A stretch of DNA of 53,478 bases, filler included, from Jimgerdemannia flammicorona (lineage: Eukaryota), in the NCBI GenBank assembly GCA_003990765.1. It is 3 parts of 3 records of this genome, joined end to end, with 100 filler letters (N's around TTAATTAATTAA, not from the genome) between each part and the next. Parts side by side here need not be neighbours in the genome. Positions count along the whole stretch, not along the records: positions 17,863 to 35,623 come from RBNJ01002420.1; 2 more parts are not named here. One strand, 5' to 3'. This document shows, in pieces, positions 4,825 through 48,063 of this stretch (positions are counted from its first letter, which is position 1; every line of letters begins with the position of its first letter). Both the position numbers and the translations under genes were made by a program. The notes beneath the pieces are model-generated. The model made no database searches. It was given only the letters and a program-made list of their open reading frames with translations, and was not told the DNA's origin.

Positions 4825-4854
4825 AGATCGACTGAGAACAAATCATATTTCATT

Positions 4855-14900: not shown

Positions 14901-17762
14901 AGCATAGGCAGCGGGTGCTGTGGGCCTCGCGGCATCTAGCAGCACTCATGGAGAGATTGGCAGGTGTGCTGGAGGATGGGGCCGTGACTGATTGGTATAT
15001 TGCGAGGATCTGGCAGGAGGTGGAGGAGCTCAAAGGGGTACTATGCAGGGAGGAGGAGGAGCAGTTGCAGGGAATGGTGGCCCGCCTGCAGTGGCAGGGG
15101 CTTGAGGAGAAGGAGAGGCCTACCAGATTCTTGTCATGGTTATTACAAGCATGATGTATGAGGCAGTGGTGGGAGGGAGTTTTGGACGAGAATGGCGAGC
15201 TGGTGGTAGAGATGCTGACAATTCTGGACCTACTGCGAACCCGGTGGGGGAATCTTTGGAGTGAGGAGGATGGGGGATTGGATGCCCTGAACATTGAAAG
15301 ACAGCTGGGGGATTAGATGCCCTGAACATTGAAAGACAGCTGGGGGATTGGCACCCGGACCCTGCAATGGGACTTGGGGCATTGGGGGACCCAGTGAGTA
15401 GTGAGGAGATTTGCAGGGTTGTGGCCTCAACGAGTAAGGGGACAGCTCTGGGAGAGGATGGGCTTCCCTGGGATTTTTGGCAGAAGATGGCTGGGGTGGG
15501 AGTAGTGCTAGAGGAAATGACTGCTACATATGTGTGATGGAGTTCTTCGGTCTAGTGCCTGGATTGGGGGACAGTGCTTAGGGCTGGTCTCTTTGCTCTT
15601 TAAAGACAAGGGAAGGCATGAGGACTGGAAGAACTGGCGGCCGATTATGCTTCTCGATATGGACCACAAATTGATGACAAAAATCTTGGTGATGAGGTTG
15701 CAGGGCATCACCCAGCAGGTTCTTGGTGTGGAGCAACATGGGTTTGTCGATGGTCAGTTGATTCGAGATGGGACAGCCTGGGTTCATGGAGTGATTGAAG
15801 GTGCCCGGATGATAGGGGTGGATGGCAGATTGGTGTTTCTGGACCAAGAGAAGGCTTATAATAGAGTGCAGAGATTATGGCTGGAAGGAGTGCTGAAGCA
15901 GATTGGCATCCCGCCAGGGGTCCGAAGAGCATTAATCAGCCTCTTGGAGGACAGTCAGGCAGCATTGGTCATCAATGGCCACTGGGGGGTGACCTTTCCC
16001 CTGGGACGTGGGGTGCCACAAGGGGACCCCTTGTCGCCCATATTGTATGCTCTTTTCCTGGAGCCACTACTGGACAGAATTCAGTATAAGATTGGAGGCT
16101 TGGACATTTTAGGGGTAAACTGGAAGGTGGGGGCCTTTGCTGATGATATGGTGGTCGGGCTGGGCTCCTTGGGAGATGTGGTGGAGTTACAGAGGACTGT
16201 GGAATAATATGAGCAGGGTTCTGGTGCTAAACTTAACTGGCACAAATGTGAGATGCTGGTGCTGGGTGCTGAAATTGTTGGTGGTGATGTTATTGGGATG
16301 GTGGTGCTGGCAGGTGAACCAGTGCGCTACTTGGGGATCTACTTCTTGGTGTTCGGATCTCTTCTTCTCTGGGCATGGTGGAACTGTAAACTTCTGGAGT
16401 GGGGTAATGTTTTGCTGAGATGGGGAGGCCGGCATATGTCCCTTGCCAGAAGGGTGATGGTGTTGAATGTGTACTGGATGCCGAAGCTGTGGTATGTTGA
16501 ATATCATTTGGATTTTCCAACCTGGGTGGTTAAGGAGTTGTTGAAGATAGTGAGGTCATGGATCTAGGGAGGACGGCAGAGCCAGGTTGGTTGGGAGGTG
16601 CTCACACTGCCCTTGGAAAGAGGTGGGCTGGGCTTAGTGGACTTTACTAAGTGACTTCTATGTCTGAGAGCCTGGTGGCTGCAAAGGGTGAGTGAGCTCA
16701 GGGGGTGGGAGTGGGTGCCCCTCATGCAGAGGTTGTGGGAGGTTCAGTACTCCCTGCATAGTGGCTCCAGGATCTGCTTGCAATGTTGGCCATGGAAGGG
16801 AGCAGGAAGATGTAGTTTACAGGCTTTTGGTGGGGGGTGGTGGATGGTGCTAAGAAGATTGGACTTTGGTGGCAAGGTGATGAAGCCGAGGAGGATTGGG
16901 GACCGTGGATGTGGCAGTGGGACAGGCTTCTATTAGGTGGGGTCCTGGTGGAGGACTTTCAGCTTGGCGAGGGTCTGGAGTGTCTGTGGGGCCTTGGCGG
17001 GGACCTGTGACCAGAAGCCTGGCAGAGGGTTGGAATTGGGGAGGAGTGAGATTGGAATAGACTCTGGCTTTGGAGCAAACAGGTGTGGCAGTGGCTGCCC
17101 CCTAAGTTCTGGGTGGTGTGGTGGCGGGTCCTACAGCAGAATGTGATATTGAACTATTGGTCTGGACACTTGGTGGATGGTGGGGTATTCAAGTGCAAGG
17201 ATTGTTTCAATGTTGGTCAGGAGGGAGGAGTGATACAAATGCCTGAACATTGGCTTGGTGAATGCGAGGTTTTGGGGGAGTTTTGGAGAGGTATTATGGA
17301 CAGGGTAGGGCTGGGGGCCAGGGAGGGAGAGGAAGGGGGGAGGTGGGGAGAGCTCTACCGGCATCTGGTGGGTGGAGTTGGGGATGAATGGCTGACCCTT
17401 AGTTGGGCTTTGGCTATGTGGGTTGGACTGGCAGGGCACTGGGTTTATGTATTTGAGGAAGGGTGCCGGGTCGGGATTGGTGACAAGATGGCTAGGTGGG
17501 AATGGTTGATGTTGGATATTTTGAATAGTTGGTGGTGGGGTTGGGGGATGAGTGGGGGGTACCGCAGGGGTCTGGTGCAGTATATCACCCAGGAGAGTGG
17601 TGGGAGGGTTTGGGTAGTGGGTAATTGGGTGGTGCTCGGGCAGGAGGAGAATGTGAGAGAGGGTTTAGGCCCCCGGGGTGTTGGTTGAGGACAGGGGTGG
17701 CATTGTATTGTATACATTATAGACTTCGGTAATAAAGGGTAGTCCAAGAGACTATAAAAAAA
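11961..17762 (+). mobile_element. Full-length LINE copy B (divergent subfamily), ORF1 12040-13956 and ORF2 13988-17688, both disrupted
   Basis: 5' motif CTTTCACCAGTAACAT. APE/RT motifs WRPIMLLDMD, LDQEKAY, GVPQGDPLSP and FADD. C-terminal CKDC-x14-H-x4-C. AATAAA and the start of the poly(A) run into the gap. Confidence 0.95.
15271..15350 (+). repeat. 35-bp tandem duplication (frameshifting) in ORF2 of copy B
   Basis: TGGGGGATTRGATGCCCTGAACATTGAAAGACAGC occurs twice, followed by a third TGGGGGATTG (10-bp microhomology). Confidence 0.95.
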
Positions 17763-17862
17763 NNNNNNNNNNNNNNNNNNNNNNNNNNNNNNNNNNNNNN
17801 NNNNNNTTAATTAATTAANNNNNNNNNNNNNNNNNNNNNNNNNNNNNNNNNNNNNNNNNNNN
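17763..17862. other. Artificial contig linker (N44-TTAATTAATTAA-N44)
   Basis: Exactly 100 bp. The central 12-mer has stops in all six frames. The same structure occurs at 35624-35723. Confidence 0.97.
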
Positions 17863-19410
17863 TTGCTCCCCCACCCATCTCCCTGACAGCAATATAGAGT
17901 CGCACAGTGTCGCCAGTTCTCCCAATATGCCCGGGACTCCAACCATTCGCTTCCAGAACTCCCAGGGGAGACCATCCTCCCCAGGCGCCGTGCCCGAGGC
18001 TGTCGCGGCAAGAACCTGGTGGATCTCGTCCTCCTTTACAGGCATCACCAGGTCACCTAGTCTCTCAGCTCGCGGTGGATGCCAGTCTTCTAATGTTTGG
18101 TCAATGGCTGTAGCGTCTGCCCCACCCTCCTCCTCACTCCATAATCCACTCCATCGTGCCTTCAGTGTTCCAAGGATGTCCTGTACACCATGCACCAGTA
18201 CACCATCCGAGTCCAGTACCCCTTCCCACCGTTGCTGTACCCTTCTCGCTCGAAGTGTCCTTGTGAGAAACTTGGAAGGCCTTTCCCCTTCCTCCACCCC
18301 CTGCCAGCGAAGCCGTGCCACCAGTCCTCGTACCCTGGACTCTTCCTCTTCCCGCAGCACCTGTTGCAGTTCCCCTACCTCCATCCTTACCTGCGTTATT
18401 CTCCAATCCTCTTCCCCCTCTACTGCCGCCAGTCTCACCCACTCCTCCAGGAGCCTAGCCAATCTAGTAGAAGCCCAATGCACTTTCTGCTTTCGCTGCC
18501 TCCCAGCCACCCTGCCAACCTCGCTCCAATATATCCTGGCCATCTCCTTCAACCTCATCCACCGAACCCCAATCGTGGCCCCTTCCTGCCGCCAATTCTC
18601 CACCTTCAGCTGAATGTCATTTGCCCACTCCTTCCACCGGGCCTCATCATCTAACAAGGAGGAATTCAGGCGCCAATGTCCAGGCCCATCCCTACTTCCC
18701 CCAAAACACCCCTGTCCCAAGATGCCCCAGTGATCTGACCACAGACACCATTCTACTTCTAACACCTTCCAGACATTGTGTCCCCAACAGTCGGCAGTCA
18801 GAATCCAGTCGATCCTTGTCCCCAGACCTCCAGCCCAATGCGTATATACTCTCCTGTCCCCCCAGTGCTCCCTACCAGCATCCATCAGCGCCCCAAGCCT
18901 TTCAGCCTCCTCCCACGCCGCTAACCCTCCACTCCTACTCTCCGCACCCCGTCCTCCATCAGTCCTATCTAGCCTTACATCTCGAACCATATTGAAATCT
19001 CCTCCAAGCATATCCAACCCAGCCTCAGCAAGGATCCCACTCTCCAAGAGCCCTTTCACCCAATCCACACGCTCCCCCCTCACTGCAGGGCAGTAACAGG
19101 AGCCAACTGTGACCGGCTCCCAACCTGTTCGAATCCATACACCCCAGACCAGTCTCATCCCCCAGCTCCTCACATCCTTTATCTCCCCTCTGCCTTTCCG
19201 AACCAGAATCCCAACCTTGCTGTTCCAAATCGCCATACCACCCCATTCCTTAGTCCATTCCATCCTATCAGTGTCATCCTCACACCTGACATCCTGTAAG
19301 AGGAAGAGATCGGCCTCCAATCCCTTCAACCAAAGAAAAATGTTCCTGCGTCTAACTGCACCCCTTAGCCCATTCATGTTTAAAGAGAAAATGTTGGTTG
19401 TACTGTTCAT
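17863..19410 (-). CDS. LINE ORF2 N-terminal part (APE endonuclease, linker, start of RT), truncated by the gap
   Basis: MNSTTNIFSLNMNGL, LQD, CYCP, GDFN, RIDW, SDH, HWRLNSSLL, EEGERPSKF and APGEDGLP with no stops. Confidence 0.93.
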
Positions 19411-19440
19411 AGCAAAATACGGTTGGTTCGCAATCAATCC

Positions 19441-21471
19441 CTACTGCTCCATGCCCCTCTCCTCCCGTGCTGTGTCCAGATTATGTTCAGCCATCACCTC
19501 CTCCTCTTCAGCCCTCTGAGCCTCCAGTCCAGCCAACAGCTCATTCATCTCCTCATCAGCCTTCTCCTCAAACTCTTCTCGGTACTCGATGCAAGCCTCC
19601 TGCCAAAGCTGCAAACCATGACGCCTGTTCCAACAGTACTCAGCCTTCTCCCCAGTGACCACCGCCAACTCCGCCTCCCTCTCCTTATCCACCTCATACC
19701 CTTCTTCCTCCAAGTACACCGCAAGAATTTCTGCCTTCAGCGCCATCGCCACTCCTTCCCTCTGCAAAATTCTCATCCAGTGCTCGTCACCCATTCCACG
19801 CAAGTCCACCTCCCCCAGCTCTTCTGCTGTCAGATTGTTCATCATCCGGCACATCCAAAGTAGGTTCCCCACCTCCTTTCCACCAGGGGTCGCCGGCCTC
19901 CCTCCATCCAGCATCGTGGTGTCTGCTCCCGCACTCGTGTCCTCATCCCACACCTCTGGGACATCCACCAGTTCCTCCTCCCCTGCCGCCACTACTTGGG
20001 CCCTCTCCAACACCTCCGGAACGCTGAATTTCACCTGCTGGGTCCCCAGCATCGTCACGTCCTCCCCAGGCTTGTTCCTGGAGGCCGGGCCCCGCCTGAT
20101 TAGCGGGGAAGGGGTGGGGGAGTTCTCCCAGCCAGCATCCCAAATCTCCAAGGTGCCGTCTGCATATAGGTCTCTAATCTGCGCCTCCTTAGCCTGCCCT
20201 GACCCTGCCCCTTCGTTCCCCCCCCTCTCTCCAGCCCAGACACTCGCTCCGGCCCCTTCGGTACCCGTCTTCATGTTTGCATCTAGCTGTTGTCCACCCC
20301 CCAGCTTGGCCAGCAAATCCTTCTGCCTCTTCTGCCCCTGAGCCTTTTCCCACTGCACCTTGTCCACTCGAATCCTCTTTTCATCCACCACCTCCAGGAG
20401 CGTCGCCTCCTCAAAAGTCTTCCAGGCCTTAGCTCGCCGTTCCACAGCCCCATCCAGCTCCTCCAGTGCTTCCAATAAATCTTCCTCCTCCTCCTCACTT
20501 CCTTTCACCCTCGTCACCTTGCACAGGGAAGCCCCCCAGACCAACACCGACGGCCAGTCCCTCGTCTTCCCAGTGGCCTCTCTCCCAGCCAGTCGAATCC
20601 TCACATCCACATCTCCAGTCCTGAGTGTGGTCCCTTCCCAGACCCTGAATCCGATATCCACCACCTCTCCATACTCCGCTATGACGTCCTCCACTCTCTT
20701 CCTCGTCTCCATCGCCGTCACTGTGGGTACTCCTTTTACCAGTAGTTGGACCACCCTCGGATCCCATTTCAAACATCTTGCCATCGGAACGCACACCTCC
20801 CCAACCACTAACCCAACCTTCAGCGCCTCCTCCAGTGGTTCTGCCTCCTCAAATCCCACCTCCACTCCCTCCAGACCCTTCAGAAACTTCACCGAGGCCG
20901 CTCCTGCCACCTGCTTAGTGATAAGCCCCAACACCATTTTCGCCGTCACCGCTAAGCCTTGGAAGCACAGTGTGACTGCGAATGCCAAGATTGACTTCTT
21001 GAGTAACGGGGCCACAGCCAGTCCCGTTACACCATCTGCTAGGTCCCCGGGCCTCATGCCCTTCCCACTGCTCGGCTCACCATCAGCAGTCCCATCTAGA
21101 TTTTTTTCCAGATCACCCATCACACCCCCATCAGCAGTCCCTGCCCCAGCCGCTACCCCCCCAGCTCCACTCCTATGGCCTTCCAGAGAGGTACCCCCAA
21201 GAGGTTGCTGCCTGGAAGTTGTTGCCGGTACCTTCCCCCCTCTCAGCCAGCTCTCCAGTCCTGCTCCCTGTCGACCCCCCTTCACCTTCTCCGCAAAGCT
21301 CACCCTGCCCGACCCTTGGCCTCCAGCTCCACCCTCTCTTCCACTGCGACCCCCCGCCAGCAGGCCCCTCATACTTTCCCCCAAGCCGGGGCCTCTCCCC
21401 ACTTGCTGCCATTCAAATGCTCCAGGGCTGCCCTGCCCAGTACGCACCTCCGGATGTTCGTTGGTCACCAT
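19441..21471 (-). CDS. LINE ORF1 protein, 676 aa: Gly-rich N-terminus, probable RRM-like central region, acidic helical C-terminus
   Basis: Open frame from the ATG (MVTNEHPEV) ~78 nt after the 5' motif, the same spacing as in copies A, B and C. The RRM call is inferred from the pattern VQLLVKGVP...EYGEVVDI...RTGDVDVRI. Confidence 0.9.
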   Translation of the reverse strand: MVTNEHPEVRTGQGSPGAFEWQQVGRGPGLGESMRGLLAGGRSGREGGAGGQGSGRVSFAEKVKGGRQGAGLESWLRGGKVPATTSRQQPLGGTSLEGHRSGAGGVAAGAGTADGGVMGDLEKNLDGTADGEPSSGKGMRPGDLADGVTGLAVAPLLKKSILAFAVTLCFQGLAVTAKMVLGLITKQVAGAASVKFLKGLEGVEVGFEEAEPLEEALKVGLVVGEVCVPMARCLKWDPRVVQLLVKGVPTVTAMETRKRVEDVIAEYGEVVDIGFRVWEGTTLRTGDVDVRIRLAGREATGKTRDWPSVLVWGASLCKVTRVKGSEEEEEDLLEALEELDGAVERRAKAWKTFEEATLLEVVDEKRIRVDKVQWEKAQGQKRQKDLLAKLGGGQQLDANMKTGTEGAGASVWAGERGGNEGAGSGQAKEAQIRDLYADGTLEIWDAGWENSPTPSPLIRRGPASRNKPGEDVTMLGTQQVKFSVPEVLERAQVVAAGEEELVDVPEVWDEDTSAGADTTMLDGGRPATPGGKEVGNLLWMCRMMNNLTAEELGEVDLRGMGDEHWMRILQREGVAMALKAEILAVYLEEEGYEVDKEREAELAVVTGEKAEYCWNRRHGLQLWQEACIEYREEFEEKADEEMNELLAGLEAQRAEEEEVMAEHNLDTAREERGMEQ

Positions 21472-22195
21472 ATTACTAGTAGCTTTCTCTAGAAACCATG
21501 TCGAAAGTGTTGCCAAAGGGTTGTGTAACCTGAATGTTACCAGAGAAAGATGTACTGATGTGTTGCATGCTGATGAGTTACACAAGTTGTACAAGATTGC
21601 TCACAAAGGCTTGCTTCTATTCCTTTTGAGACCTCTGCCATACAATGCATTGACTCAACAGCTCAGTCACCAAAGGCATACCCCACAATATCCATCAGCC
21701 TTTCTTTATCTTGACCAAATGTTGTGAATAAAGTCAGCAGATCTCACCATAGAGCTGTGGACCCTAAGAAAAGCATGAGGTGAATTGAGTCATACTGGGG
21801 AAATTTAAATATAAACAAGTAAACAAGTGGCAGCCAAGTAAGCAACCTATATCTACTATCAGCTGCTCCAAAAAGGCTACCACATATATAGCTATAAGGT
21901 CTGTGAATTCTGAGGTCCAAAGGGCCACCATAAGTTGTTGCTGGAATTCTCCCTCATCTCTGCCATCACCACCACCATTGCCACCACTCTTGATGAGCAG
22001 CTTGTATATTGCCCATATAAGAAAGAATCTAACATTATTAGCAGAGAGTGCATTTCTACCTCAAATACTCTCTCTTTTGACAATTATTGCAGGGTGAAAA
22101 ATGAGTAGACTGGACCAATGTATGAATTAAGGGCTGCTGTTCTGTTTGCTTGTAATATGGTTGGAAAGAATAAAGAAAAAGAATAAAGAAAAGAG

Positions 22196-22241
22196 AGGGA
22201 ATAAAAGGAAAGAGTGATGTTATCAAAGTATGGCAGGAAAA

Positions 22242-22273
<32 letters not shown>

Positions 22274-22345
22274 AAAAAGAGAGGGAATAAAAGAAAAGAG
22301 TGATGTTATCAAAGTATGGCAGGAAAAAAAAAAAAAAGAGTGAAA
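22196..22345 (+). repeat. Tandem duplication of GAGGGAATAAAAGRAAAGAGTGATGTTATCAAAGTATGGCAGG-(A)n
   Basis: Two near-identical units, each followed by an A-tract. Confidence 0.85.
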
Positions 22346-22380
22346 TGAACAAAAGAAAGGGTGATGTTACCAAAGATTTC

Positions 22381-22513
22381 AATCTGGATGGATCAATCCC
22401 GATAGATCAATCCAGATGGATCAATCCAGATGGATCAATCCAGATAGATCAATCCAGATGGATCAATCTAGATGGATTAATCCAGATTAATCTGGATCAA
22501 TCTGGATCAGATC
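22381..22513. repeat. Minisatellite of 14-bp GATCAATCCAGATG units grading into 10-bp GATCAATCTG units
   Basis: Read directly: about seven 14-mers, then about three 10-mers. Confidence 0.9.
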
Positions 22514-25500
22514 ACAAGACTAATCTAAGTTGATTCAAATCCATCATGATGAACCTGAATCAAATCTCATCCGGATCAACTCCACTCATTCAGAACACTA
22601 CAGACCACTAGTCCCAGCTTCTTCAATAACTCTATAAACTTAGGCAGTACTATCTCAAATAAGTCTGCCTCCAACAAATCTCCTCTACTTCTCTCTTAGT
22701 ATCTGCTGAGTCACTCCTTGTAGTCAAGCTACTACTATCTTAGTAACTAGCTTCCTATCTATATTCAGGAGTATAATTGGCCTCTAGTTCTTCCAATCCT
22801 CTCTTCTGCTCTTATCCTTATATAACAGGACTACCAAACCAAGGTCTTATCCTTTAATCTAGACTTCAGTTATAAGAATAGAGTCACAGAGTACCACCAT
22901 CTCTCTTAATACTCCAGGGATCCTTACCATCTTCTTCCAGAAGTCCTAAGGCAGTCTATTCTTCCCATGTACTATACTAGACTTTGTAGCCACTAGAATT
23001 TTCTAAATCTTCTCCTCTTAGACTGGTAGGATCAAATCCCAAGGCCTTCTATTAGTGATGACTGCCAATTCTCCAAGATCTCTTCAATACCTGCAGCATC
23101 TATACCTCCCTCTCTCTCATTCTATGGACTACTCTATCTCTCCTTCAGAGACCTCAGAATCTGATATATGCCATATACAAGTGAGCTCTCAGTATCCAAA
23201 ATCCCCTCTCATCTTTGTCTCACCCTTTTTATCTGAAGGAGCCTTATTAGATACTATGAAGGTCTTTCCCTCTCTTCAAGTCTCTGCCATCTCAGCCAGA
23301 CAGTCATACTCTTTATATGCATCTCCTCCTCCTCCCTTAGCACCTGCTACATCTCTACTATCTCAAGTTTGACTTATACCAATCTCCAGTTCTGCACTTC
23401 CTCTAAGTCTAATAATTTAGCCCACTGTAGCTATAGTCATATCAATTTAATAGAAGTCCACCTCACTCTTTACTATTGCTAGATTCTAGCAAACCAGCCA
23501 GTATCTCTCCAGTAACTCCTTCAGTCTCATCTATCTAACTATAATCAATACTCACTCAAGAATCCAACTCACTATCTTCAACTGTATCTCTGCTACCCAG
23601 AGATTCCTCAGTATGCTCTCTATCAGTAGAGAGATATTAAGATACCAATATCCAAGCCTATCCCCACTCTCTCCAAACTGGCCTCTCTCTATCAAACCCT
23701 AGTAGTCTGACTAAGAGTACTACTCCACCTCTAATGATTTCCAAACATTCAACCCCTAATAGTCTGCTATCAGTATCTAGTCAATTCTTTTATCCAGACC
23801 ATTGACCCAATGAGTATATATCCTCTTCTCTCCCCACAGTATCCTTTCTGTATCCCCCAAGAAGCTAAGGCCCTCTACCTTCTCCCAGGTATCCAGGCCA
23901 CTACTTTTTCCTTTAGTACTCCTCTCTCTATCAGTCCTATTTATCTGAAGATTTCTGACCATATTTAAGTTATCTATCAGAATATTAACTCCATTCTTAA
24001 AAAGAATACCCTTCTCTAATAACTCATTAATCTACTACATTCACTCCTGACAGCAGAATAGTAGTAAGAGCCAATTACTACTAGTGCCCAGCTCAGCCAA
24101 ATCTATTTCTCCTATATCAACTGGTTACTCCAACTCCTGACTCTTCCTATATCTCCTCTGCCACTCCTCACCAGAATTGCCACCTTGTCCTTCCATACAG
24201 CAGTGCCCCCCCATTCTCTCATTCACTTTTCTTAGTTAATATTATCCTCACATTATATATCCTATAACAGAAAGAGATCAGCCTCCAATCTCTTTAGCAA
24301 ATTAAAAATATTATACCATCTCCCAGAGCCCTATAGCCCATTCACATTCAAAGAAAAAAAATGTTAGTTGTACTGTTCATTAGGAATAATGTTAAAGAAG
24401 AATGTTCTCTTCACAACTCAGCACTTATCTCCTCCCTTACTAGGTCTAATCTATACTCTGCAGTAATCTCTACATTCTCCATTCTTTTAGCCTCCAATAT
24501 AGCCAGAAGATCAGTCAGTTCCACATTCTCCTTTTCCTCAATTGAGTCTATACTCCTGATATGCTCTCTGCTAAAGTTGAAGGTCCTGCCTCTACTTCTA
24601 TCAAAAAGCTATCTGTTCCACTATTGCTGCTACCAGCTCTTTCTCTCTTATTTCATTAACCTCATATCCCTTCTCCTCTATAAAAGATGATCAATATCTC
24701 AACCTTAAGAGCCTCCACTATATCATCTCTATAGAGTACTCTCTTTCAATACTTCTCACTAATAACTTATAGATTGATATCTCTCAACTCCTCTACTACC
24801 AAGTTATTCATTATGGTACATTCACCATAAGTCCCCAATATCCTTACCTCTAGGAGTATCAGGTCTCTCCTTGCTCAGTATTGAAGTATCTATACTAGCA
24901 CTAGCAGATTCTTCTCACTTCTCCTCAAAGATATCAACCAACTCATCCTCCTTAGTTCCTATCATCTACCCCCCTATCTCTGCATCTGATACTCCAAACC
25001 AAACTCTGTGCATATCCCTCATCTCTACATCCTCACCAGCTTATACCCTCCCAGTGATAGCTAGCACTCTGCTCACCTTCTCCTTCTCTCAGACCTCCAG
25101 AATGCCATTAGTATATAGTGCCTAATCTCTAGCCACTCTACTTGTTTGATCACTGACTATCTTCTGCTTCCCTCTTCTACTGGCCCAAATACTTATCTAT
25201 AATCTCTTAGCAGTTTCTGATCTACCTAATCCTATGGCTGCTTTCTCTTTCATATTTACTAATAGCTTCCTCAATCTCTTCCTTCTCTGTGCCCTCTTGT
25301 AAGCACACAACCTCCAAGCCACTAAATTCACATGCGACCTCTGAACAAATCTGGAAATCACCTGCTTGATCACAAAGCTGAGTCAAACCAAAGTCACAGT
25401 GCACAAAGCTGAGTCAATATGAAGTCACAGAACACAAGGTTTATACAAACGGAATCTTACCAATCAGGACCAAATGCATATATACTAAGCACCAAGATGC

Positions 25501-25553
25501 ATCAAATCAGAGAACTAAAACAAACAACAACCACAACTTCCAAATACACAAAT

Positions 25554-26651
25554 ATGACCACTGAGATCTACAACTGTATCCATGCTGACATTTGGAATGC
25601 CATTGTCAACTGAGCCACACCCCCTCTGCCCCTCATGAATATCCATAGCCTGGCACCCCTCTACTTTATGGAAGCCCAATGGAATGCTCTGAACATACTT
25701 AGTGAGGCTTACTGAATTGGACAAATCTCAAGCTACTACCAGATTGGCCACCTCCTGGAAGACATGGTCGAATACCACCATGATACAGATATTACCCAGA
25801 TGTCTCAACACCAGAAGCTCATTGCCCGCAAACATCAAGAACTCTTCTATGAGTACAGTACCTTTATTCCCCACCTCTGAGTTACTACCAGCGAAATGGT
25901 TGCTACTCTATCCTATGGCCAAATCGATGACATGATACAAGAACTCAACCACAAGTACCTTGAGTATGTCGAAACCACAGACAGAACCTTCCTACACCCC
26001 AATGACCACATCCTGCAAATGCCTCAATTTGGATATGCTATGAAGGATATCTACGATATAATCTACTTCGATGAAGATGAAGCAGAAGACAATGATCCCT
26101 CTGATGCTGACATGACCTCTAGCCAAGGATCTCTGCCAACCCTGATCACTCCACCAACCTTGCTGATGAACTTATAGCAGTTCATAACTATATACGAGAC
26201 TTATTGGGACAATGACCACTGGCATGAATACCAATCCACCTTTATCCCTGATTACTTCAACTACAATGAAGAGACAAGAGAACACAACCTGTATCTCCAG
26301 ACAACCCTTGAGATTGAACCAACCACTCCACCACCCAAGTATGAGTGACACGAATCACAGCCACCAGTATACTATAACCCCACAACTCATAGTGCCATAA
26401 CCTATAAAAGATACATGGACAGTGAATCTGATGAAAGCGAAGACAACACACCTATCCTTTGCCCACTAACACCTTATCTAGCCTATGAGACAGACGACGC
26501 TATCCTGTGGGATGGAGATGAAGTCCCAATGTATTACTACCTCAGTGAATAAGGAGAAGTAATCTGCGAACCACTTTTCCTAGATGACTACTTCATCGGA
26601 GATAATGCAATCGATGGTGATGTCATCGAGGACTACCCAGATAGTGCCTAA
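25554..26651 (+). pseudogene. LTR-internal (U3) ORF, 365 codons, unknown acidic protein; 5' LTR copy
   Basis: A single frame from ATG to TAA with no frameshift. Six internal stops, four of which are sense codons in the other LTR. Confidence 0.8.
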
Positions 26652-26838
26652 ACCCATAAATAGTCTAGCAGTCATAGTATAGTTAGATTAGCCTTATGAC
26701 ATAACTGTGAACTGACTCAGTAGTCAGACAATCTCTTAACATGTCAGATCATACTTGTACGACGTGATTGCATTCCGACTCAGCAAGGCACTTAGTGCTA
26801 CATCCATATTTAGCATAGTCCAGATAGCCCCTCACTAG

Positions 26839-26967
26839 TATAAATACCCCCTCCCCCAGACCTCAGAATCTCAGACTCGAATACACAAGAACATTTCTGA
26901 ATACTTCCCCACAATATCTCATCACATAACTACTCCTAGTATAGCAATATCATGAATAGCAAATAAA
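26839..26967 (+). promoter_or_regulatory. Putative LTR TATA box (TATAAATA 26839-26846) and poly(A) signal (AATAAA 26962-26967)
   Basis: Both motifs are conserved in the 3' LTR (~30050 and ~30173), in the order expected for U3-R-U5. Confidence 0.6.
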
Positions 26968-27329
26968 CCTATTCGATAACCCACAAACCACTCTTAAGTA
27001 AATCCACTCTCTGTTAGGTCTCACTCCTAACTCCATCACAAAATTTTCTAATTGGGTATTGTCTGCAGCGATATGCCGATTCAACTAAGCTGGTCTTAGT
27101 TTCTTGAACTTCCTGAAATACAGAAAATCCTGAACATCCAGAACTAGTCTGAAAAAGGACTTTTGGTTGAGACATCAATCTGATCTTGAAATCAATAAGC
27201 GTAGAGGATGTACTCCATATGAAATTGATCTTGACCATAAGAAAACAGTCTTTCAGAGTATCCAGAACTTCTAGAAAACCCTTCCAGAACTATGTAATGG
27301 TTACCCTAAAAAGCAACCCTCTTACAACT

Positions 27330-27338
27330 TGGTAGCAG
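27330..27338 (+). other. Primer-binding site, probably for initiator tRNA-Met
   Basis: TGGTAGCAG lies 3 nt after the LTR end. TGGTAGC is complementary to the ...GCUACCA 3' end of eukaryotic tRNAiMet. Confidence 0.75.
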
Positions 27339-27929
27339 TGGTTTACAATCCAATTCCACTTCAAGATGCTTCCTCACCCCACTATAAACCTCTCTGTGAA
27401 TTCCTACAAGTTGGTATAAAGCCCTACCTCTGAACTGGAATTTATCCAAACCATCTGACAATCTGGAGAGAATTGAACCTAATGTACAAGGACAATTTGA
27501 CCTCCACACCTGTAACAAGTGGGACAAACTTCATTCAAAGAAAGAAATACTCCAGTTAAATCAGCAAATAGGCGAAACCCTATTCACCGAACTCCTTGCA
27601 CTACACCCAGCAAGTCAAGACGAAGAAGGTCTTATTGAAGCCTTCTTTACTCTTCTCAACAAGAGTTTTGTCAGCTCCACAAATCTGAGTGACCTAGGAC
27701 AACCAGCAGTAGTCTTTCTAGCCTTAGTTCCTCATGAAGCCCAAGCCTCTGTAGCCAAGTGGCTCAACTCTACCAACTTTCACCATACCAGGACCAAGAC
27801 CGCATTATACTACTGATTCCAGAACAGCAAGGCCTGCCATATTCTTAAAGAAGAAGCAAGAGAAACCCTTCATCAACTATCTGACCCTGAACCTGAAGCA
27901 GGCCCTGCTACAGTCCTACTTGAATCTGA

Positions 27930-28398
27930 AACCAACACTGCAGAGAAGAAACCTTTGATATTGGAGAAAAGGTTCTACTTGACATCAGAGGATACTGAGT
28001 TGACAACCTCAAGCATAGACCATCGACAAAGCTGAACAGTAAGTTCATTGGACCATTTGAAGTCATTGCATAAGTCTCTCTAACCTCCTACAAATTGGTG
28101 CTACCAGACACCATTAAGATTCACCCAGTCTTTAATGTTGAATGTCTCAAGCAATACAATGAGAATGATGATGAGTTTTTTCCAAACTGAACCACTGAAC
28201 CACTAGTACCTGTCATTATTAATGACCAAGAAGAGTACGAAGTTGAACAAATCCTCAACAAATGTGGCAACAAGAGCCACCCTGAGTACCTTGTCAAATG
28301 GAAAGGTTACCCAATCTATGATGCAACCTGGGAACCCAAGACCAATCTTCAGAATGCTACTGACCTAGTTCAGGAATATGATTCCTTGAACAACTAGA
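27930..28398 (+). pseudogene. Integrase C-terminal (GPF/SH3-like) region plus chromodomain remnant
   Basis: Translation: TFDIGEKVLL...KLNSKFIGPFEVI...YKLVLPDTIKIHPVFNVECLK...EEYEVEQILNK...EYLVKWKGYPIYDATWEPKTNL. Confidence 0.92.
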
Positions 28399-28525
28399 AC
28401 CAAAATACTCTGCACCTACTAACACATACTATATATTATCCTCCCAAAACATTATAATTATTGTGAACCAAACCAAGAACTCAGCAGAACAAAATTAGAA
28501 GGCCCCAATGAGGATGTTGAAAGCT

Positions 28526-28538
28526 AAGAAGGGGAGAG
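28526..28538 (+). other. Polypurine tract
   Basis: AAGAAGGGGAGAG immediately before the 3' LTR. Confidence 0.85.
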
Positions 28539-28539
28539 T

Positions 28540-30511
28540 TGTAAGTGCACAACCTCCAAGCCACTGAAATCACACACAACCTCTGAACAAATCTGGAAAT
28601 CATCTGCTTGATTACAAAGCTGAGTCAATATGAAGTCACAGAACACAAGGTTTATACAAATGGAATCTTATCAATTAGGACCAAATGCATATATACTGAG
28701 CACTAAGACACGTCAAATTAGAGAACCAAAACAAACAACAACCACAACTTCCAAACATACAAACATGACCACTGAGATCTACAACTGTATCCATGCTGAC
28801 ATTTGAAATGCCATTGTCAACCAAGCCACACCCTCTCTGCCCCTCATGAATATCCATAGCCTGGCACCACTCTACTTTATGGAAGCCCAATGAAATGCTC
28901 TGAACATGCTTAGTGAGGCCCACCAAATCGGACAAATCTCAAGCTACTATCAGATCGGCCGCCTCCTAGAAGACATGGTCGAATACCACCATGATACAGA
29001 CATTACCCAGATGTCTCAACATCAGAAGCTCATTGCCCACAAACATCAAAAACTCTTCTACAAGTACAGTACCTTTATTCTCCGCCTCTGAGTTACTACC
29101 AGCAAAATGGTTGCTACCCTATCCTATGGCCAAATCGACGACATGATACAAGAACTCAACCATAAGTACCTTGAGTATGTCAAAACCACAGACAGAACCT
29201 TCCCACACCCCAATGACCACATCCTGCAAATGCCTTAAGTTGGATATGCTATGAAGGATATCTACGATATAATCTACTTCGATGAAGACGAAGCAGAAGA
29301 CAATGATCCCTCTGATGCCGACATGACCTCTAGCCAAGGATCTCTGCCAACCCTGATCACTCCACCAATCTTGCCAATGAACTTACAACAGTTCATAACT
29401 GCATACGAGACTTATTGGGACAATGACCACTGGTATGAATACCAACCTGCCTTTACCTCCGATTACTTCAACTATAATGAAGAGACCAGAGAATACAACC
29501 TGTATCTCCAGACAACCCTTGAGATTGAACCAACCACTCCACCACCCGAGTATGAGTGACACGAATCACAGCTACCAGTATACTATAACTCCACAACTCA
29601 TAGTGCCATAACCTATAGAAGATATATGGACAGTGAATCTGATGAAAGCAAAGACAACACACCTATCCTTTGCCCACCAATACCTTATCCAGCCTATGAG
29701 ATAGACGACACTATCCTGTGGGATGGAGATAAAGTCCCAATGTATTACTACCTCAGTGAACAAGAAGAAGTAATCCACGAACCACTTTTTCTAGATAACT
29801 ACTCCATCAGAGATGATGCAATCGATGGTGATGTCATCGAGGACTACCCAGATAGTGCCTAAACCCATAAATAGCCTAGCAGTCATAGTATAGTTAGATT
29901 AGCCTTACAACGTGACTGTGAACTAACTCAGCAGTCAGACGATCTCTTGACATGTCAGATCATACTTGTATGACGTGACTGCATTCCAACTCAGCGAGAC
30001 ACTTAGTGCTACATCCATATTTAGCATAGTCTAGATAGCCCCTCACTAGTATAAATACCCCCTCTCCCAGACCTCAGAATCTCAGACTCGAACACACAAG
30101 AACATTCCTGAATACTTCCCTAAAATATCCCTTTACACAACTACTCCTAGTATAGCAATACTATGAATAGCAAATAAACCTATTTAATAACCCACAAACC
30201 ACCCTTAAGTAAATCCACTCCCTGTTAGGTCCCACTCCTAACCCCATCACGAAATTTCCTAATTGGGTATTGTCTGCAGCGATACGCCAATTCAACTAAG
30301 CTGGTCTTAGTTTCTTGAACATCCAGAACTAGTCCGAAAAAGGACTTTTGGTTGAGACGTCAACCTGATCTTGAAATCAATAAGCATAGAGGACGTACTC
30401 CATACAAAATTGATCTTGACCATAAGAAAACAGTCTTCCAGAGTATCCAGAACTTCCAGAAAACCCTTCCAGAACTACATAATGGTTACTCTAAAAAGCA
30501 ACCCTCTTACA
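28540..30511 (+). repeat. 3' LTR (1972 bp)
   Basis: TGTAAG...CTTACA, followed by the TSD CCTCT. Confidence 0.95.
28765..29862 (+). pseudogene. LTR-internal (U3) ORF, 365 codons; 3' LTR copy
   Basis: Track ORFs starting at 28906, 29251 and 29626 share one frame with the ATG at 28765. The 1098-nt length is identical to the 5' LTR copy. Confidence 0.8.
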
Positions 30512-31629
30512 CCTCTCCTACTGTCCTCTGTCTACCTAGATATGCTTTCTATCTACTATCTCCAAATATATCAAATCTATATAGGTCTTCCATATCTTTG
30601 CTTGATATTTTACTACTCTACTAAGTTTCTTTAGAGTCTTCAGTAGGTCCTCCTCCTCCTCCTCCTCACTCTCCTTTACTGTCAATACCTTACAGATAAA
30701 GGCTCTCTATAATATCACTAAAGACTAGTTTTGAGTCTTTTCAGTAGCCTCTCTCTCAGCCATGATCTCTTCAATTCTATGTCTCATCTCAACTGTTGTC
30801 ACCATAGGTACCCCTTTTACTAAGAGCTGGAATACTCTTGGGTCCCATCTCAAGTACTATATCATAGGTACTACTACTTCTCCAATAGTTAGGCCAGCCT
30901 TTAATACCTTTCTGTCTTCTCAATACCTACCTCTACTCTCTCTATATCTCTCAAAAACTTTACTGAAGCTGCTTCTACTATTTATTTCAATATCAGTCCT
31001 AATATCATCTTTGCTATCACAGCTAGCTTTTGAAAATATAAGATAGCAAACTTTAAGATTGACTTCTTGAGTAATAGGGCTATTACTAGACTTGTTACAT
31101 CATCAGTCAGATCTCACTACCTCTTTTGGACCCTCTGCCCAACCTCTCTATCAGCCATTATATCTCTTTTTTTTTCCAGATCTATTATTATACTACTATC
31201 AGCAGTTACTTCATTACTCTCAGCTATAGTACTTTCAGCATCTATGCTTGCTTCCCCAGACTGAGGGTCTCTCTCTCTCTCTATGCTAGCCTTGTCCTTT
31301 CTCTCAGCAGCACTAGCCCTAGCTCTAGCTAGTGATCCACTCTTCTTTACCTTATTCACAAAGCTTGGGGGCCCAAATCTGTCTCTATTTCCACCAAATA
31401 CTAGTCTCTCTCCAGAGCTCTCTCTACTTTTCACTTCTCTAAAAGCCTCTATTCTTAGGCCATAACCTCTCTCCACATACTGTCAGCCAAATACCCCAAG
31501 TCTATCTGACTCAGCTTGTATATTAGAACTCTTGTTTAATAATATTTTACTAGTATCTTTTCTCTGAGTTATATTGTAAAGTATTACTTAAAGTTAGTAT
31601 AATGTGAATTGTACTAGAGAAAGATATAT

Positions 31630-32420
31630 CTGACTAATTATAATTACTGATAATATAAAACTAATAGAATAGTTATTTATAAAGTTAATATTTTAAAATA
31701 ATAAATTAATAATAGTTCATATAAAAATAAATTAATAATTAGAGTTTTTTATTTTTTAACTTAAAATAAAGATATTTATTTTTAATCTATTAGTTAATAA
31801 GTATTAAGTTCTAATATAATAGATTTGTAACTTAAAAAATATATTTTTTAAATTATTTCTATCTTTAAAGTTAGTAATAAAATATACTTAATAATAATAA
31901 CTAAAAATATTATTACTAGACTATTAAAATATATAATACCAAAATATAAAATAATATATCTTAATATTTTATTATTAGAATACTCTTTTTTACTAAACTT
32001 TTCTGATTATTTTAATTTATTTATATAAGATTAGAGTATAAAATTTAGGCTATTAATTATAATATTAAGTTAAATTTAAACTATATATTATATTATATAT
32101 ATATATATATATTTTATTAATTAAAATCATTATAATTAAAAATATAAGTATTAAAGTAGGTAGTAATTATATATTATTATACTTTTAAGATAAATACATA
32201 CAACTACTAAATCTTTAAAAAAATATATTAATTTGTGATTTATAGTATATGTTATTTAATTAAAAAATATAAATAAATTAAATAATTATTATTTAATTTA
32301 AAAATATTTATTTATGATATCTTAAATATTATTAGAAATCTTTATTTATAAATGACAACTTTTAAAAGAGTAAACCTAACTAAATAAAAATATCAGAGTA
32401 TAAAATACATGTATGTATAA
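31630..32420. other. Extremely AT-rich block
   Basis: Almost devoid of C/G and rich in TA. Lies between the TE cluster and the CpG-retaining gene island. Confidence 0.85.
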
Positions 32421-33039
32421 TAAAATCGAATTGATTTAATAATACGTCATCGATTTGTAATGTTTCACAGAAGTCTGGCTACTACCGTATTTGGTCCGAT
32501 GTACGCCGCTGCCTAAAACACCACCACAAGGTCCGGCCTACTACCTTAAATAGAAAGCGACCAAAGAACAGGAGCCAAAAGAAACATAAACTCTCAGATA
32601 TTGAGGGGGCCGATGAAGGTAAATAGTTACCTTGAAACTGACTTGTTCTTTGCAAGTCTCTCGTGTGACAATGTATGCTATATGCACCAACTCAAACTTA
32701 CTGTTTCAACAGTCGCCAACCGGCAATCACCTACGCCAGGTGCGTATCACTTATACTAACAACTATATTGGTGTAGTCTGAGTGTTTGGTGCACTTTGGG
32801 AAACGATTGTGGCCTGTTTCTCCTAGTGGTCGTGATTTGACTTTGCCTTTGAGGGAGTCGAAAAGCATTCTGCAACTTGCCGTCTTTTATTCACAGCCCC
32901 TCTTAACTCACTTCTCTACGCACAGGACTGGAGGACGAGACCGGCGAATGACCCTGTGATAAAAAAGGCCAGAACGTCCAAAATAAGAGGTAAGCGAGCA
33001 ATCATTCGAATGGTTAGAGTATCAATTTCTATTCGGTAG

Positions 33040-35623
33040 TGCGTTTTCAGCAATGGGAGAAAGGGGCTAGGAACCATAGTTACGTAGAGCTCCATACTCT
33101 TGAACGTCCAGTTATGAGAACATATCTGTTCATTCGCGCTGGTTTCTTCACTTCACGGCATCATCGATCTCAGGAAAGGCGATCTCAGGAAAGGCGATCT
33201 CAGGAAAGGCGTCGAGGAATGAGCATGGTAGTGGCAAGGTTAGAGCCAAGAGATATCAGCGTAAGGTGTAAAACCTTCATCTCGTTCTATTTGCCGGTTG
33301 CACTCCTAACATTCCCTGTCATGGCCTCATAGAAGCCCATGACTATCCTCGCCTCAGACAAGAAAACTGACTCCGACATCGACGATGACCAGATGACGGA
33401 TAGCAGTAATATTGCTACAGAGGTAAAGTAACAATGAATCTCCCCTCAGTCCTAAACCTGGCGGATATTATTTCGCTTGCTATTCTAACATTATCACAAA
33501 TACCGTTCGTTGCATTATGTGATGGCTTTGTAGGCGTCCGGAACCCTGGTCACTAAGGCAAGCACCACGGAAACTGGCCAGCCATCAAAGAGACCAAGAC
33601 CTGCAGCTACTGGAGAGATCCAGGTGCATTACGGCGTTATATTTTATGCTATACTTGCTTCATAGTGTTATGAGTTTGCAACACTAATGATCTTTGCAAA
33701 TGTAATGTTCTGTCCTGGTTTGGTAGACTTCAGGAAATGTCTCATCGTCAGCCGCGGAAACTACCTCTGCCTCTTCTACTCCCGTCATCTCTGATTTTCT
33801 CCAACAAAAAAATCTCCAGGATTGGGGCACCAATGACGTTTTCACCTTCCTGAATGTCAACAAAAATCGCCAGTTCGGAGACGAACATATTAAAGTCATT
33901 CAAGGACAAGAAGTCGCCGGCATAGGTTTACTCGAGCTGACCAAGACCGACCTTATTGACAAGCCATACCATCTGAAAGGAGGGCCAGCAGCAGGGATCG
34001 ACAGACTAGTTAAGGATCTAAAAGTTGCCATGGGGCTCGTCAGCGGCTCTGGTAAGTGTCGCGTACATACATCTACTTTTTGCTTGGTCGGCGGACGGCA
34101 TGCTGCTTAAGTTTTTTAATTTATACAATTGGTGGTTAAAAAAGAACATAACTCGGTTTCAAGCCACTCTCTCAATCGTTCATTTCATATCGTGTCTTGC
34201 TGCCACCTTGTTCTTCATCACCTTCTGCAGCTCTCCACGGTAACATATTTTTGCCTTTTCATTTCGTTATCTCCACTTTACCTTTCGAAAATCCAAACTA
34301 CATTTTCTCCTTACTGCCATTTCATTTTAACTATTGCTGGTTCATTTCTAATCTGTGCCCATCCATCCATTACTCTTGACTATTTCAGGTACAATATTTC
34401 CTTTTGCTTTATTTTGTTTTTTCCTAGAAAACCGCTACGATAGGCAAATTCCTTTTACTAATACGTGATCAAACTTACTCCTTCATCTACTCGCACACTA
34501 TCACAGTGCGACTCAATGCCACTCCAGGTACATTTTCTTTGGTTATTTTTGGATTTTCTGCAAGTACTCGAGGGTGTTGTCTGTGCGCTTGGAATGCTCT
34601 TTTCTCCGAGATCTTTGTCGATTCATTCGTGTTATTGCGGAACGACCTGAAAAACTCATTCCTGCATTCATACCTCTATCCGTCCACATATTCATCCTTC
34701 CCGACATTCTCTTTCTACGCAAATCCCATGCCCCGACTATTTCAGGTATGATGTCTCTTTTGCTTTTTTACTCTCTTTCCCATAAAATATACCAATAAAA
34801 TGTCGAGTATATATATAGTAGATACGCTTGGAATAGTACAATTATAAGGATGTCTTGGTGTTTGATTTCCTTTTCATTTTACTTGCCAATTTCACTTCTT
34901 AACACGTTCTATCCAACCATTCCTGATTTGAACCTCGCTATCGCCAACAGCCTCCGTCGAAAATACACATTTTATTATTTATGCCCTGCTTTCCACTTTC
35001 ATTCATTGATTACCTAGTCTTACTCACACAAAGCTGTGCGAGACTGATTTTCCACTGCCGAATGTTGCAAACCCTGACTGCCGGCGCTACCATATTATTT
35101 ATTAATTGGTTACCATTGTTCCTAAAAAAAAAAATTTTCCATCAATTCTTCAACGAAACCATCGTCCTGTTTTTCCTCACCGAAGTGCCTTTCGTTACCC
35201 CAGGTACGATCTCTTTCTTACGATTATTGAGAACACTGGAATATTGACGTCGTTTCCAAAAAAAGAAAAAAAAAAAAGTATTAAATCGTTCGAAACTCTG
35301 CGCTACGCTGTTTCTAGCGTTTTGCCGTGTTCCGGGAAAATATTAATGAGGAGGAATGATGTGGAAGGGTATAGACTTTCCTGCACTAATTTCCTTTCTT
35401 GTGCGATTATATTCAGACAGGAGACCCTATCCCGATGAGACAGACGAGGGCCGGGACCAATTGATGGTGATACCAACCGAGCGGTTAGAATATATCGAGA
35501 AATTCATAAGGAAACGACCCGTTACCCTTCTACGGAGCCCCCCGCTCTCGGGTAAGAGTACACTGGGCGTGACACTCCGGGACCGTTTCTTGGCTGGAAA
35601 TTATGATGCTGTATATATATCTT
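33040..35623 (+). CDS. Multi-exon gene: low-complexity N-terminus, SAM-like domain and P-loop NTPase (Crinkler/CR-effector-like architecture); 3' part lost in the gap, start uncertain
   Basis: In-frame GT-AG exons 33333-33422, 33534-33623, 33727-34051 and 35417 to the gap. Upstream exons 33040-33260 and 32926-32989 are plausible but less sure. SAM-like segment LQDWGTNDVFTFL...IQGQEVAGIGLLELTKTDL...LKGGPAAGI. Walker A VTLLRSPPLSGKST. Confidence 0.75.
33164..33211 (+). repeat. 15-bp tandem repeat CGATCTCAGGAAAGG x3
   Basis: Three perfect copies; the length preserves the frame (RSQER). Confidence 0.9.
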
Positions 35624-35723
35624 NNNNNNNNNNNNNNNNNNNNNNNNNNNNNNNNNNNNNNNNNNNNTTAATTAATTAANNNNNNNNNNNNNNNNNNNNN
35701 NNNNNNNNNNNNNNNNNNNNNNN
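35624..35723. other. Artificial contig linker (N44-TTAATTAATTAA-N44)
   Basis: Identical in structure to 17763-17862. Confidence 0.97.
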
Positions 35724-41496: not shown

Positions 41497-41499
41497 GTG

Positions 41500-42968
41500 C
41501 TGTAGATATCCAATATCAGTTCTCACAGATGGTTAGTGGGATCAGACTAGTTTTATCCACCATTCTGACTACTATTTTGACCACAATTCTACTCTCTTGG
41601 GTATGTAGCCACAGATATATCAAACAGACTTCTCTAGTCTATATAGTATAGCTCAGAACTATCTGACCATTTCTGCCACCAGTACTCCAGTCAAGCAGGT
41701 ATTCTCTAGTAGAGTGGATCTTATTTTCTCTAAGAGATATATACTGAATACTAAGGCAATCTGGGCCTATATATATCTAAAGTCTTGGTGGGGTACAGGC
41801 TGCTAAAATTGGATAAGTCCTACAGTATTAAATAAAAAAGAGTTAGAAATAAATTATTTTTTTTTAAAAAAAAAAAAAAAAAGAGAGAGTTCAGCTCAGG
41901 GTGTAAGGTGGTAGGCAGAGAGAGTGTATCAGTATTTGTGGTCCCTTGCTAGCTCAAGTGGGATAGAGATTGGCAGGATTATTGGTAGAGAGAGTATACA
42001 AAATTTGTAGCCCTCTGCTAGCAGCAAGAGGTGATCCCAAGCTATAAGTTGGTGTAGAAGTCTAGATCAGAGAGAGTATGCAGAATTTATAGTCTAATGA
42101 TCTACTGTGAGAAGTAACTTTAAGCAGATCAGACTTCAGTACAGATCAAACTCTGGTATAGATTCAGGCTCCATAAGTATCCTGGCCCTATACTATAGTA
42201 CTATATCAGTAGTATTACAAAGTAGGGCCAAGGAACTAGTAGAGCCTAGCAAAAGCCCAAACTAGTACAATAAAATAAAGAGCAGAGTGGAGGTTGATAG
42301 AATTGACAGAGTGAGTATGTAAAATTTATAGCCCTCTGCTAGTAGTAAGGGACAGCCCTAAGCTATAAGCTGGTGTGGGAGTCTGGATCAGAGGGAGCAT
42401 ACAGAATTTGTAGCCCAATGACCTACTATAAGAAGCAACTTCAAGAAGTCAGACTCTGATACAGATTAGACTCTGGTGTAAATTCAGGCCCTGCAGATAC
42501 TCTAATCCTATACTATAGCACTATATCAGTAGTACTATAAAGCAGAATCAAGGGACCAGTAGAGCCTAGCAAAAAGCTAAAAACTAGTGCTACAAAACAG
42601 CTGCCTAACCCTCACAAAGACTGTCTAATCTTCACAAAGGCTGTCTAGCCTAACCTTCACAAAACTACTCCATCTACCAGTCTCAGATCTTGATGAGCCT
42701 ATTATCTATTATAAGTATGATGACTATAGTATCTGAGCTCTTCTTAAAGGTAATAGTGCTATAGAGGTCATGTGATTAGAATAGAACAGCTGTGTTAACT
42801 ACAAATGGGACCCCAAAACTATAGGTGAGGTTGTACTAGATACTATAACTATTCTCCCAAGTTGGGCCCTTCCTTTCTAGAATGTAAAACATTATCAAAG
42901 TAACATTATTGTCTATATATATAGATAGAGAAATAATGTATCTGATATACTCTAATATGACATAAGTA
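41500..42968 (+). mobile_element. hAT DNA transposon relic: dimerization-domain exon (~41600-41806) and 3' region
   Basis: Translation FSSLYSIAQNYLTISATSTPVKQVFSSRVDLIFSKRYILNTKAIWAYIYLKSWW fits the hAT C-terminal consensus (ARDYLAIPATS..VERVFS). Confidence 0.8.
41985..42590 (+). repeat. ~320-bp tandem duplication with recurrent GAGAGTATRCARAATTTRTAGCC motifs
   Basis: The units starting at ~41988 and ~42309 are collinear. The inverted relative at 44853-45690 has only one unit. Confidence 0.75.
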
Positions 42969-48050: not shown

Positions 48051-48063
48051 ATAGCCACAATAC

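Follow-up and report, generated by a model that had tools for sequence, protein, structure and literature searches.

Mouse mammary tumour virus (MMTV) carries the sag open reading frame (ORF) in the U3 region of its long terminal repeat (LTR), and the nef gene of human and simian immunodeficiency viruses (HIV/SIV) and the bel/bet genes of foamy viruses are accessory genes that overlap U3, some of which regulate viral expression or host defence. In fungi, the LTRs of Gypsy retrotransposons are usually a few hundred base pairs long. The element described here, from Jimgerdemannia flammicorona, has LTRs of about 2 kb, and each of them contains a frame of 365 codons. It was found in a window (the whole stretch of DNA analysed) of 53,478 nucleotides, filler included, which joins three parts of three records of assembly GCA_003990765.1; positions 17,863 to 35,623 come from RBNJ01002420.1. 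The segment 25298-30511 is an internally deleted LTR retrotransposon of the Ty3/Gypsy chromovirus type, present as a single insertion. That a protein gene is embedded in its LTR is likely. The whole explanation, an accessory gene of about 365 codons that is borne by the element in U3, functional in the active lineage and a pseudogene in this copy, is also considered probable.

By position, sag is the closest analogue: in both cases a gene of a few hundred codons lies wholly inside an unusually long LTR, in U3 (here a putative placement), is duplicated at both ends of the inserted element and is placed at the 3' end of the genomic RNA. Unlike sag, the frame has no Pfam family match and its protein lacks a membrane-type hydrophobic segment, and the element is not a retrovirus but a non-enveloped Ty3/Gypsy chromovirus, in a soil eukaryote whose relatives are fungus-like. 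No homology to Sag, Nef or Bet was detected in Pfam, in the sequences of the Protein Data Bank (PDB) or with Foldseek, so that the frame is an analogue by position and not a member of these families. It shares with nef and bel/bet an accessory coding sequence that reaches past the polypurine tract into the 3' LTR, although those genes start upstream of U3, whereas here the whole frame, including its ATG, is inside the LTR. Compared with the fungal chromoviruses of the Tf2/Ty3 type, the element has the same SH3 and chromodomain end of the integrase, the same TG..CA LTR termini and a 5-bp target duplication, and differs in its gene-bearing 2.0-kb LTRs. Botrytis Boty elements are said to carry an antisense gene, brtn.

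The additional ORFs (aORFs) of LTR retrotransposons are also lineage-restricted, fast-evolving extra genes without family assignment. As these do, the frame represents an extra conserved ORF besides gag-pol (as judged from the open homologues P0003 and P0004 and from the constraint tests described below), but it is located inside the LTR, past the polypurine tract, and not in the internal region. The available text of PMC3485330 places ORF0 of the rice elements Retrosat2, RIRE3 and RIRE8 upstream of gag and env-like ORFs between pol and the 3' LTR, and states that LTRs do not encode the enzymes for retrotransposon replication. Further cases of extra ORFs are the plant aORFs (PMC7264820) and those of bdelloid rotifers (PMC5408684), and the accessible parts of that plant review and of that rotifer paper make no mention of an ORF within an LTR. 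Likewise, no LTR retrotransposon with a conserved ORF wholly inside its LTR is described in the available portions of PMC10787394, PMC6875170 and PMC3485330, and none was found in the full-text literature, in a search that was not exhaustive and lay outside subscription journals.

The two copies of the gene are the following:

25554-26651, plus strand: first copy of the LTR gene, a 365-codon pseudogene; codons 20, 54, 109, 208, 265 and 333 are internal stops
28765-29862, plus strand: second copy of the LTR gene, likewise a pseudogene; codons 14, 43, 109, 158 and 265 are internal stops

A preliminary description of this DNA had proposed that both LTRs of a chromovirus-like element contain a protein-coding frame, and the proposal is upheld by the depletion of stops, by open homologues and by an integrase remnant recognised by Pfam. 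The details that it gave of the frame were also reproduced: the 1098-nt frame is co-linear and of the same length in both LTRs, the alignment of the LTRs places both indels (one of 31 nt, at 25371, and one of 26 nt, at 27105) outside it, just two internal stops are common to both copies (codons 109 and 265, each TGA), and the private stops are due to transitions, the pairs being TGA/CAA (codons 20 and 54), TGA/TGG (14 and 43) and TAA/CAA (158 and 333). The stops shared by the two LTRs number two internal ones plus the terminal one for the gene frame, and 13 and 31 for the remaining sense frames. Dinucleotide shuffling, repeated 2000 times, produced 24 stops on average (sd 4.6, minimum 9), and in no case were there as few as the 6-7 observed. 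The gene frame is non-random.

Two open homologues were identified. P0004, of 128 aa, is encoded on a JGI contig of 1180 bp and shares 84% identity with codons 1-128. P0003, of 247 aa and from an ENA contig of 998 bp, aligns with codons 115-364 at 62% identity and 79% similarity, the alignment having just two gaps of 2 residues each. At window stops 14, 20, 43, 54 and 109, P0004 has W, R, W, R and R, and at stops 158, 208, 265 and 333, P0003 has Q, Q, Q and N, so each of the nine stop positions of the window copies is a sense codon in some homologue; the shared stop at codon 265 corresponds to Gln in P0003, the sole homologue covering that position. Where the window has its private stops at 26550 and 29236, almost the whole sequencing depth of each of the four runs described below supports CAA. 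The protein searches returned one match at near lengths, one at shorter lengths and four among all representatives. Two of the matches were treated as spurious, namely P0005, a repeat protein that aligns through a 38-residue motif at only 30-34% identity, and P0006, a 5546-aa protein at 23% identity. Scans of metagenome_contigs, viral_contigs and genome_contigs for the DNA of the homologues confirmed no relative.

The homologues also bear on the ancestry of the stops. Decay of CGA had been suggested for the TGA/CAA pairs and for the shared TGA codons, and P0004 indeed has Arg at codons 20, 54 and 109; for the TGA/TGG pairs at codons 14 and 43 it has Trp. Recoding of TGA is ruled out, since under the standard code P0004 reads codon 109 as Arg and codons 14 and 43 as Trp. 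Within codons 1-114, P0004 has ten Arg residues, and at these positions CGN has been lost in 17 of the 20 window codon copies; the CGA-type sites read in the LTR pair as TGA/CAA (two sites), CAA/CAA (two) and TGA/TGA (one), the pattern expected from near-saturated decay of CpG on either strand. Under such decay each LTR may have acquired its TGA at codon 109 independently, once the element had inserted; the shared stops need not predate the insertion, and the frame may have been intact at that time.

Several observations indicate that the frame has been under constraint in the family. When neutral drift to 62-72% amino-acid identity was simulated by applying random substitutions to the window's own codons, 4-43 of 1000 runs kept the frame open, varying with the transition bias, a test of moderate strength because part of the 38% divergence of P0003 is decay of the window copy. 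Among the replacements that separate the frame from P0003, 43 of 91-92 (47%) are positive in BLOSUM62, compared with 29-32% (sd 5%) in the simulations, of which 0, 0 and 1 per 300 runs, by setting, reached 46%. In addition, Logan contigs from four runs, of which two are soil metagenomes and two are coded organisms, were aligned to the window, with 4785 related short pieces in run X1, 499 in X3, 349 in X16 and 652 in X2; these thousands of pieces make the family abundant in all four. The rows chosen by the tool, which cover 40 of 955 differences, 12 of 40 indels and 32 of some 6300 pieces and serve as supporting evidence only, place none of the 12 listed indels inside the frames, which make up 42% of the element, and none of 16 pieces inside the frames is gapped despite 6-19% base divergence, compared with 7 of 10 in non-coding parts. 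The 19 listed base differences in the frames fall at codon positions 1 (n = 10), 2 (n = 0) and 3 (n = 9).

The copies in the window itself are dead pseudogenes. The two LTRs, which are the only copies of the LTR sequence within the window, are about 90% identical with gaps counted, and differ by 143 substitutions in 1976 aligned bases (136 transitions and 7 transversions). Within the frame the substitutions are spread over the codon positions as 27/20/25, with the same density as outside it, and this evenness implies that both copies decayed neutrally after insertion. Per-site rates of change, taking the C- or G-bearing allele as the older one, follow the order CpG > CpA > CpC >> CpT, and the contexts resemble those of hypermutation that is driven by methylation or is similar to repeat-induced point mutation (RIP). 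A CpG is involved in 32 of the 143 inter-LTR changes.

Three other explanations have been considered, of which the least improbable, although still unlikely, is that a host gene or gene piece was recently captured into the LTR as a passenger useless to the element, its open homologues being simply young copies. LTR retrotransposons are known to acquire extra ORFs, as described in the accessible text of PMC7264820 and PMC5408684. It also agrees with a passenger that the protein has no tie to Gag, Pol or Env and that expression of the LTR gene is only inferred. However, none of the 1.8 billion representatives is a homologue of host type (the databases may lack the host's own proteome), the only genuine matches look like further copies of the same family, and P0003, although 38% diverged, has kept its frame open, its gaps are in frame and conservative replacements are in excess, properties that point to long-term selection rather than to a fresh capture.

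Much less probable is that the frame represents some other small mobile element, or a rearranged gene piece, nested inside an ancestral LTR. An LTR of 2 kb is long, and weak inverted matches containing GCTGAGTCA and TGACTCAG (76% complementary) flank the frame, but these arms are short and imperfect, neither a target duplication nor convincing terminal repeats were found around the frame, Pfam gives no transposase or other family match, and copies in the four runs are continuous across the junctions between LTR and frame (25403-25648, 25544-25816 and 29842-30055). Finally, an open frame made by composition, or a true gene on the opposite strand in the same register, is extremely improbable. 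The in-register antisense frame is indeed stop-poor, with only five stops, and its open stretches are these:

25515-25727 and 28675-28938, minus strand: stop-poor antisense open stretches of the LTR gene

Nevertheless, all five antisense stops are common to both LTRs and the longest open stretch is 87 aa, no shuffle came near the stop count of the sense frame, and both homologues are stop-free in sense. Antisense frames in register are commonly stop-poor where TTA, CTA and TCA codons are rare, and the one seen here is probably a by-product of the codon usage of the sense frame.

An accessory gene of the element is thus the reading that is followed here, and the LTR contains several candidate control signals for it:

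25371-25432, plus strand: 31-bp tandem duplication with two TGAGTCA motifs; LTR2 has one unit, which accounts for the 31-nt LTR indel
25479-25484 (28690 in LTR2), plus strand: TATATA, 75 nt 5' of the ATG, candidate promoter of the LTR gene by motif position
26838-26845 (30049 in LTR2), plus strand: TATAAATA, putative main LTR promoter (TATA box), identical in both LTRs
26962-26967 (30173 in LTR2), plus strand: AATAAA, putative polyadenylation signal, the sole AATAAA of each LTR

The ATG of the gene is 256 nt inside the LTR and its stop codon is 187 nt upstream of TATAAATA. In agreement with the original placement of the frame ahead of the main TATA box, both TATAAATA and AATAAA are downstream of it in each LTR, and by these motifs the gene would lie in U3. 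TGAGTCA, which may be a bZIP site of the AP-1/Gcn4 type and an enhancer, precedes the ATG together with TATATA, an arrangement that suggests a separate promoter for the gene. In all, TGAGTCA or TGACTCA sites of the LTRs are located in the duplication at 25371-25432 (two), at 26713 and at 28621, one of these, a TGACTCA, standing ahead of the main TATA box; across the window TGASTCA is not enriched (8 matches versus 11.8 expected), with 3 of the 8 in LTR1. In run X16, the only one guessed to be RNA and one that cannot show transcription, depth is high at 26940-27327 and 30044-30431 and low over the frame.

The encoded protein is acidic (pI 4.1-4.3, with 61-65 Asp+Glu versus 10-17 Lys+Arg) and rich in aromatic residues (45-48 Tyr+Trp+Phe) and proline (25), with a GRAVY index of -0.5 and no hydrophobic segment. 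Its first 120 or so residues are predicted to be helical, and beyond them extends an acidic tail (pI about 4), which is long, has many Tyr, Trp, Phe and Pro residues and contains short motifs that are conserved. The blocks kept in P0003 are MVxTLxYGQIDDM, HPxDHILQMP, QQFITxYETYW, DYFNYNE and NLYLQTT, and also ESESDE, PYPAY, YYYL and EPLF. No Gag, Pol or Env motif had been recognised in the reconstructed protein at the outset, and this agrees with Pfam, which returned zero matches to any family for the proteins P0001-P0004 at E <= 1 to 10. The search of PDB sequences gave nothing below E 0.37. AlphaFold2 models built on three-row alignments reached a mean confidence (pLDDT) of 33.8 for P0003, i.e., the C-terminal 247 residues, and of 50.2 for P0004, the N-terminal 128 residues, which were modelled as five helices, and Foldseek found nothing in the PDB with the P0004 model at E <= 0.001. 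In the ESM Atlas, P0003 is present with a poor model (pLDDT 0.39) and no usable match, and the feature matches of P0004 share fewer than 170 features, which is the chance level.

In the favoured explanation, the accessory gene would sit between the 5' end of the LTR and the main TATA box, in U3, and would be functional in the active lineage of the family, having decayed here in a copy that is old, has lost internal sequence and has accumulated many transitions. Reverse transcription places U3 in both LTRs, so that each new insertion would receive two copies of the gene and a solo LTR would keep one. The gene could be expressed from a promoter of its own in the first 250 nt of the LTR, with the transcript ending at the AATAAA some 310 nt past the stop codon, or from a subgenomic form of the element RNA, whose 3' end holds the gene. 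The protein would help the element as a regulator or adaptor, e.g., in activating transcription or in countering host silencing; a regulatory or adaptor role serving the element is favoured from composition and position, and a function as transactivator or anti-silencing factor would be a guess from the acidic and aromatic composition. A more far-reaching version, which is possible but doubtful, takes the LTR as a self-contained cassette (TGAGTCA repeats, TATA-like box, ORF and poly(A) signal) whose protein would act in trans across the family. All LTRs, solo ones included, could then express the acidic protein, which might, for example, activate LTR transcription or blunt host methylation or RIP-like silencing.

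Apart from the limits of the drift test and of the contig rows given above, several points weigh against an accessory gene in U3. Only two homologues exist among the 1.8 billion representatives, and their own position inside an LTR is a supposition. P0003 begins at the residue aligned with M115, just past the shared stop at codon 109, and the N-terminal third may be absent or broken in its lineage. The start codon is ambiguous, since both LTRs have an in-frame ATG 45 codons upstream (25419 and 28630), and with the ATG at 25419 TATATA would fall inside the gene. The U3/R/U5 borders and the expression of the LTR gene are proposed from motifs, and with no confident structure and no family match the function is conjecture.

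The architecture of the element that carries the gene is summarised by the following features:

25293-25297, plus strand: left copy of the target-site duplication CCTCT, a pentamer directly outside the LTR end that matches the right copy
25298-27326, plus strand: 5' LTR (LTR1), 2029 nt, TGTAAG...CTTACA, direct repeat of 28540-30511
27330-27341, plus strand: primer-binding-site-like TGGTAGCAGTGG, 3 nt after the 5' LTR, at motif level from reading the sequence
27400-27935, plus strand: left internal part (leader and presumed Gag N-terminus), ending at the internal deletion junction
27933-28397, plus strand: integrase C-terminus with Tf2-type SH3 domain and chromodomain and 3 internal stops, by Pfam
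28526-28538, plus strand: polypurine tract AAGAAGGGGAGAG, immediately ahead of the 3' LTR, likewise at motif level
28540-30511, plus strand: 3' LTR (LTR2), 1972 nt, TGTAAG...CTTACA, direct repeat of LTR1
30512-30516, plus strand: right copy of the target-site duplication CCTCT, directly outside LTR2

The borders of the element are fixed by the TG..CA ends, the 5-bp duplication, the primer-binding-site-like sequence and the polypurine tract. One X16 contig has a loose end, unlike the sequence ahead of 25298, which indicates that another insertion of the family begins at the same base, and X16 contigs are also loose after 30511. The internal region is only about 1.2 kb long, and neither gag, protease, reverse transcriptase, RNase H nor the integrase core was recognised in the window copy by a scan of open frames and Pfam; its left part (27400-27935) has open frames of 138 and 72 aa without Pfam match. 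At 27930 and 27940, contigs of runs X1 and X3 break off with loose ends, and this divergence of other copies from the window places the internal deletion junction near 27930-27940. To the right of it, the segment 27933-28397 matches SH3_Tf2-1 (E 4.3e-16) and Chromo (E 9e-17) in Pfam when its three internal stops are read as X, and as a protein query it retrieves 100 database proteins at E <= 1e-10. Among the relatives listed, nearly all have SH3_Tf2-1 and Chromo, and many also reverse transcriptase and integrase-core domains; the few with names are from Rhizoctonia and Armillaria, apart from a chromodomain protein of a springtail, whose match covers only 30% of the query. The Pfam domains and the Ty3/Gypsy polyprotein relatives assign the element to the chromoviruses, and by these comparisons it is a deletion derivative of a Tf2/Ty3-like chromovirus with fungus-like relatives. 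Two of the integrase-tail relatives, the polyprotein P0030 and the 349-aa piece P0090, have a dUTPase domain (PF00692) in their Pfam annotation, which is a further case of extra domains in the chromovirus group.

The surroundings of the element are repeat-rich, with fragments of LINE-like reverse transcriptases; a scan of 49 open frames recognised no host gene. Pfam matches to RVT_1 are located at 15521-16204 (plus strand), 37577-37966 (minus) and 51464-51916 (plus). A LINE-like element at 17815-21600 (minus strand) has an uninterrupted first ORF of 719 aa (19444-21600) without Pfam match, followed by an open frame of 541 aa that runs into N's. Strong strand asymmetry (GC skew of about +/-0.45 at 48-56% GC) is seen at 2001-22000, 36001-42000 and 48001-52000, in blocks that match the positions of LINE-like elements. 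The sense strand of those elements is rich in G and poor in C, and that of the LTR element is, conversely, rich in C and poor in G. The window also contains four runs of 44 N's in two pairs (17763-17806 and 17819-17862; 35624-35667 and 35680-35723) and a 300-nt direct repeat that has no relation to the LTR element (22621-22920 and 37585-37884, with 70% identity and some 15 kb between the copies).

Retrotransposon LTRs are treated as non-coding control regions, are masked by annotation pipelines and are assumed to be neutral in age estimates. A conserved gene in U3 would show that retroviruses are not the only elements in which accessory genes like MMTV sag arise. It would also double the gene dosage with each insertion, leave solo LTRs with expressible copies and place part of the LTR under selection, thus biasing dating by LTR divergence. 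If the LTR were in addition a self-contained cassette acting in trans, it would be the equivalent of a retroviral U3 accessory gene, found in a fungus-like host and in a retrotransposon that is not viral. The orphan protein may also reveal how a retrotransposon copes with a host that heavily mutates its repeats.

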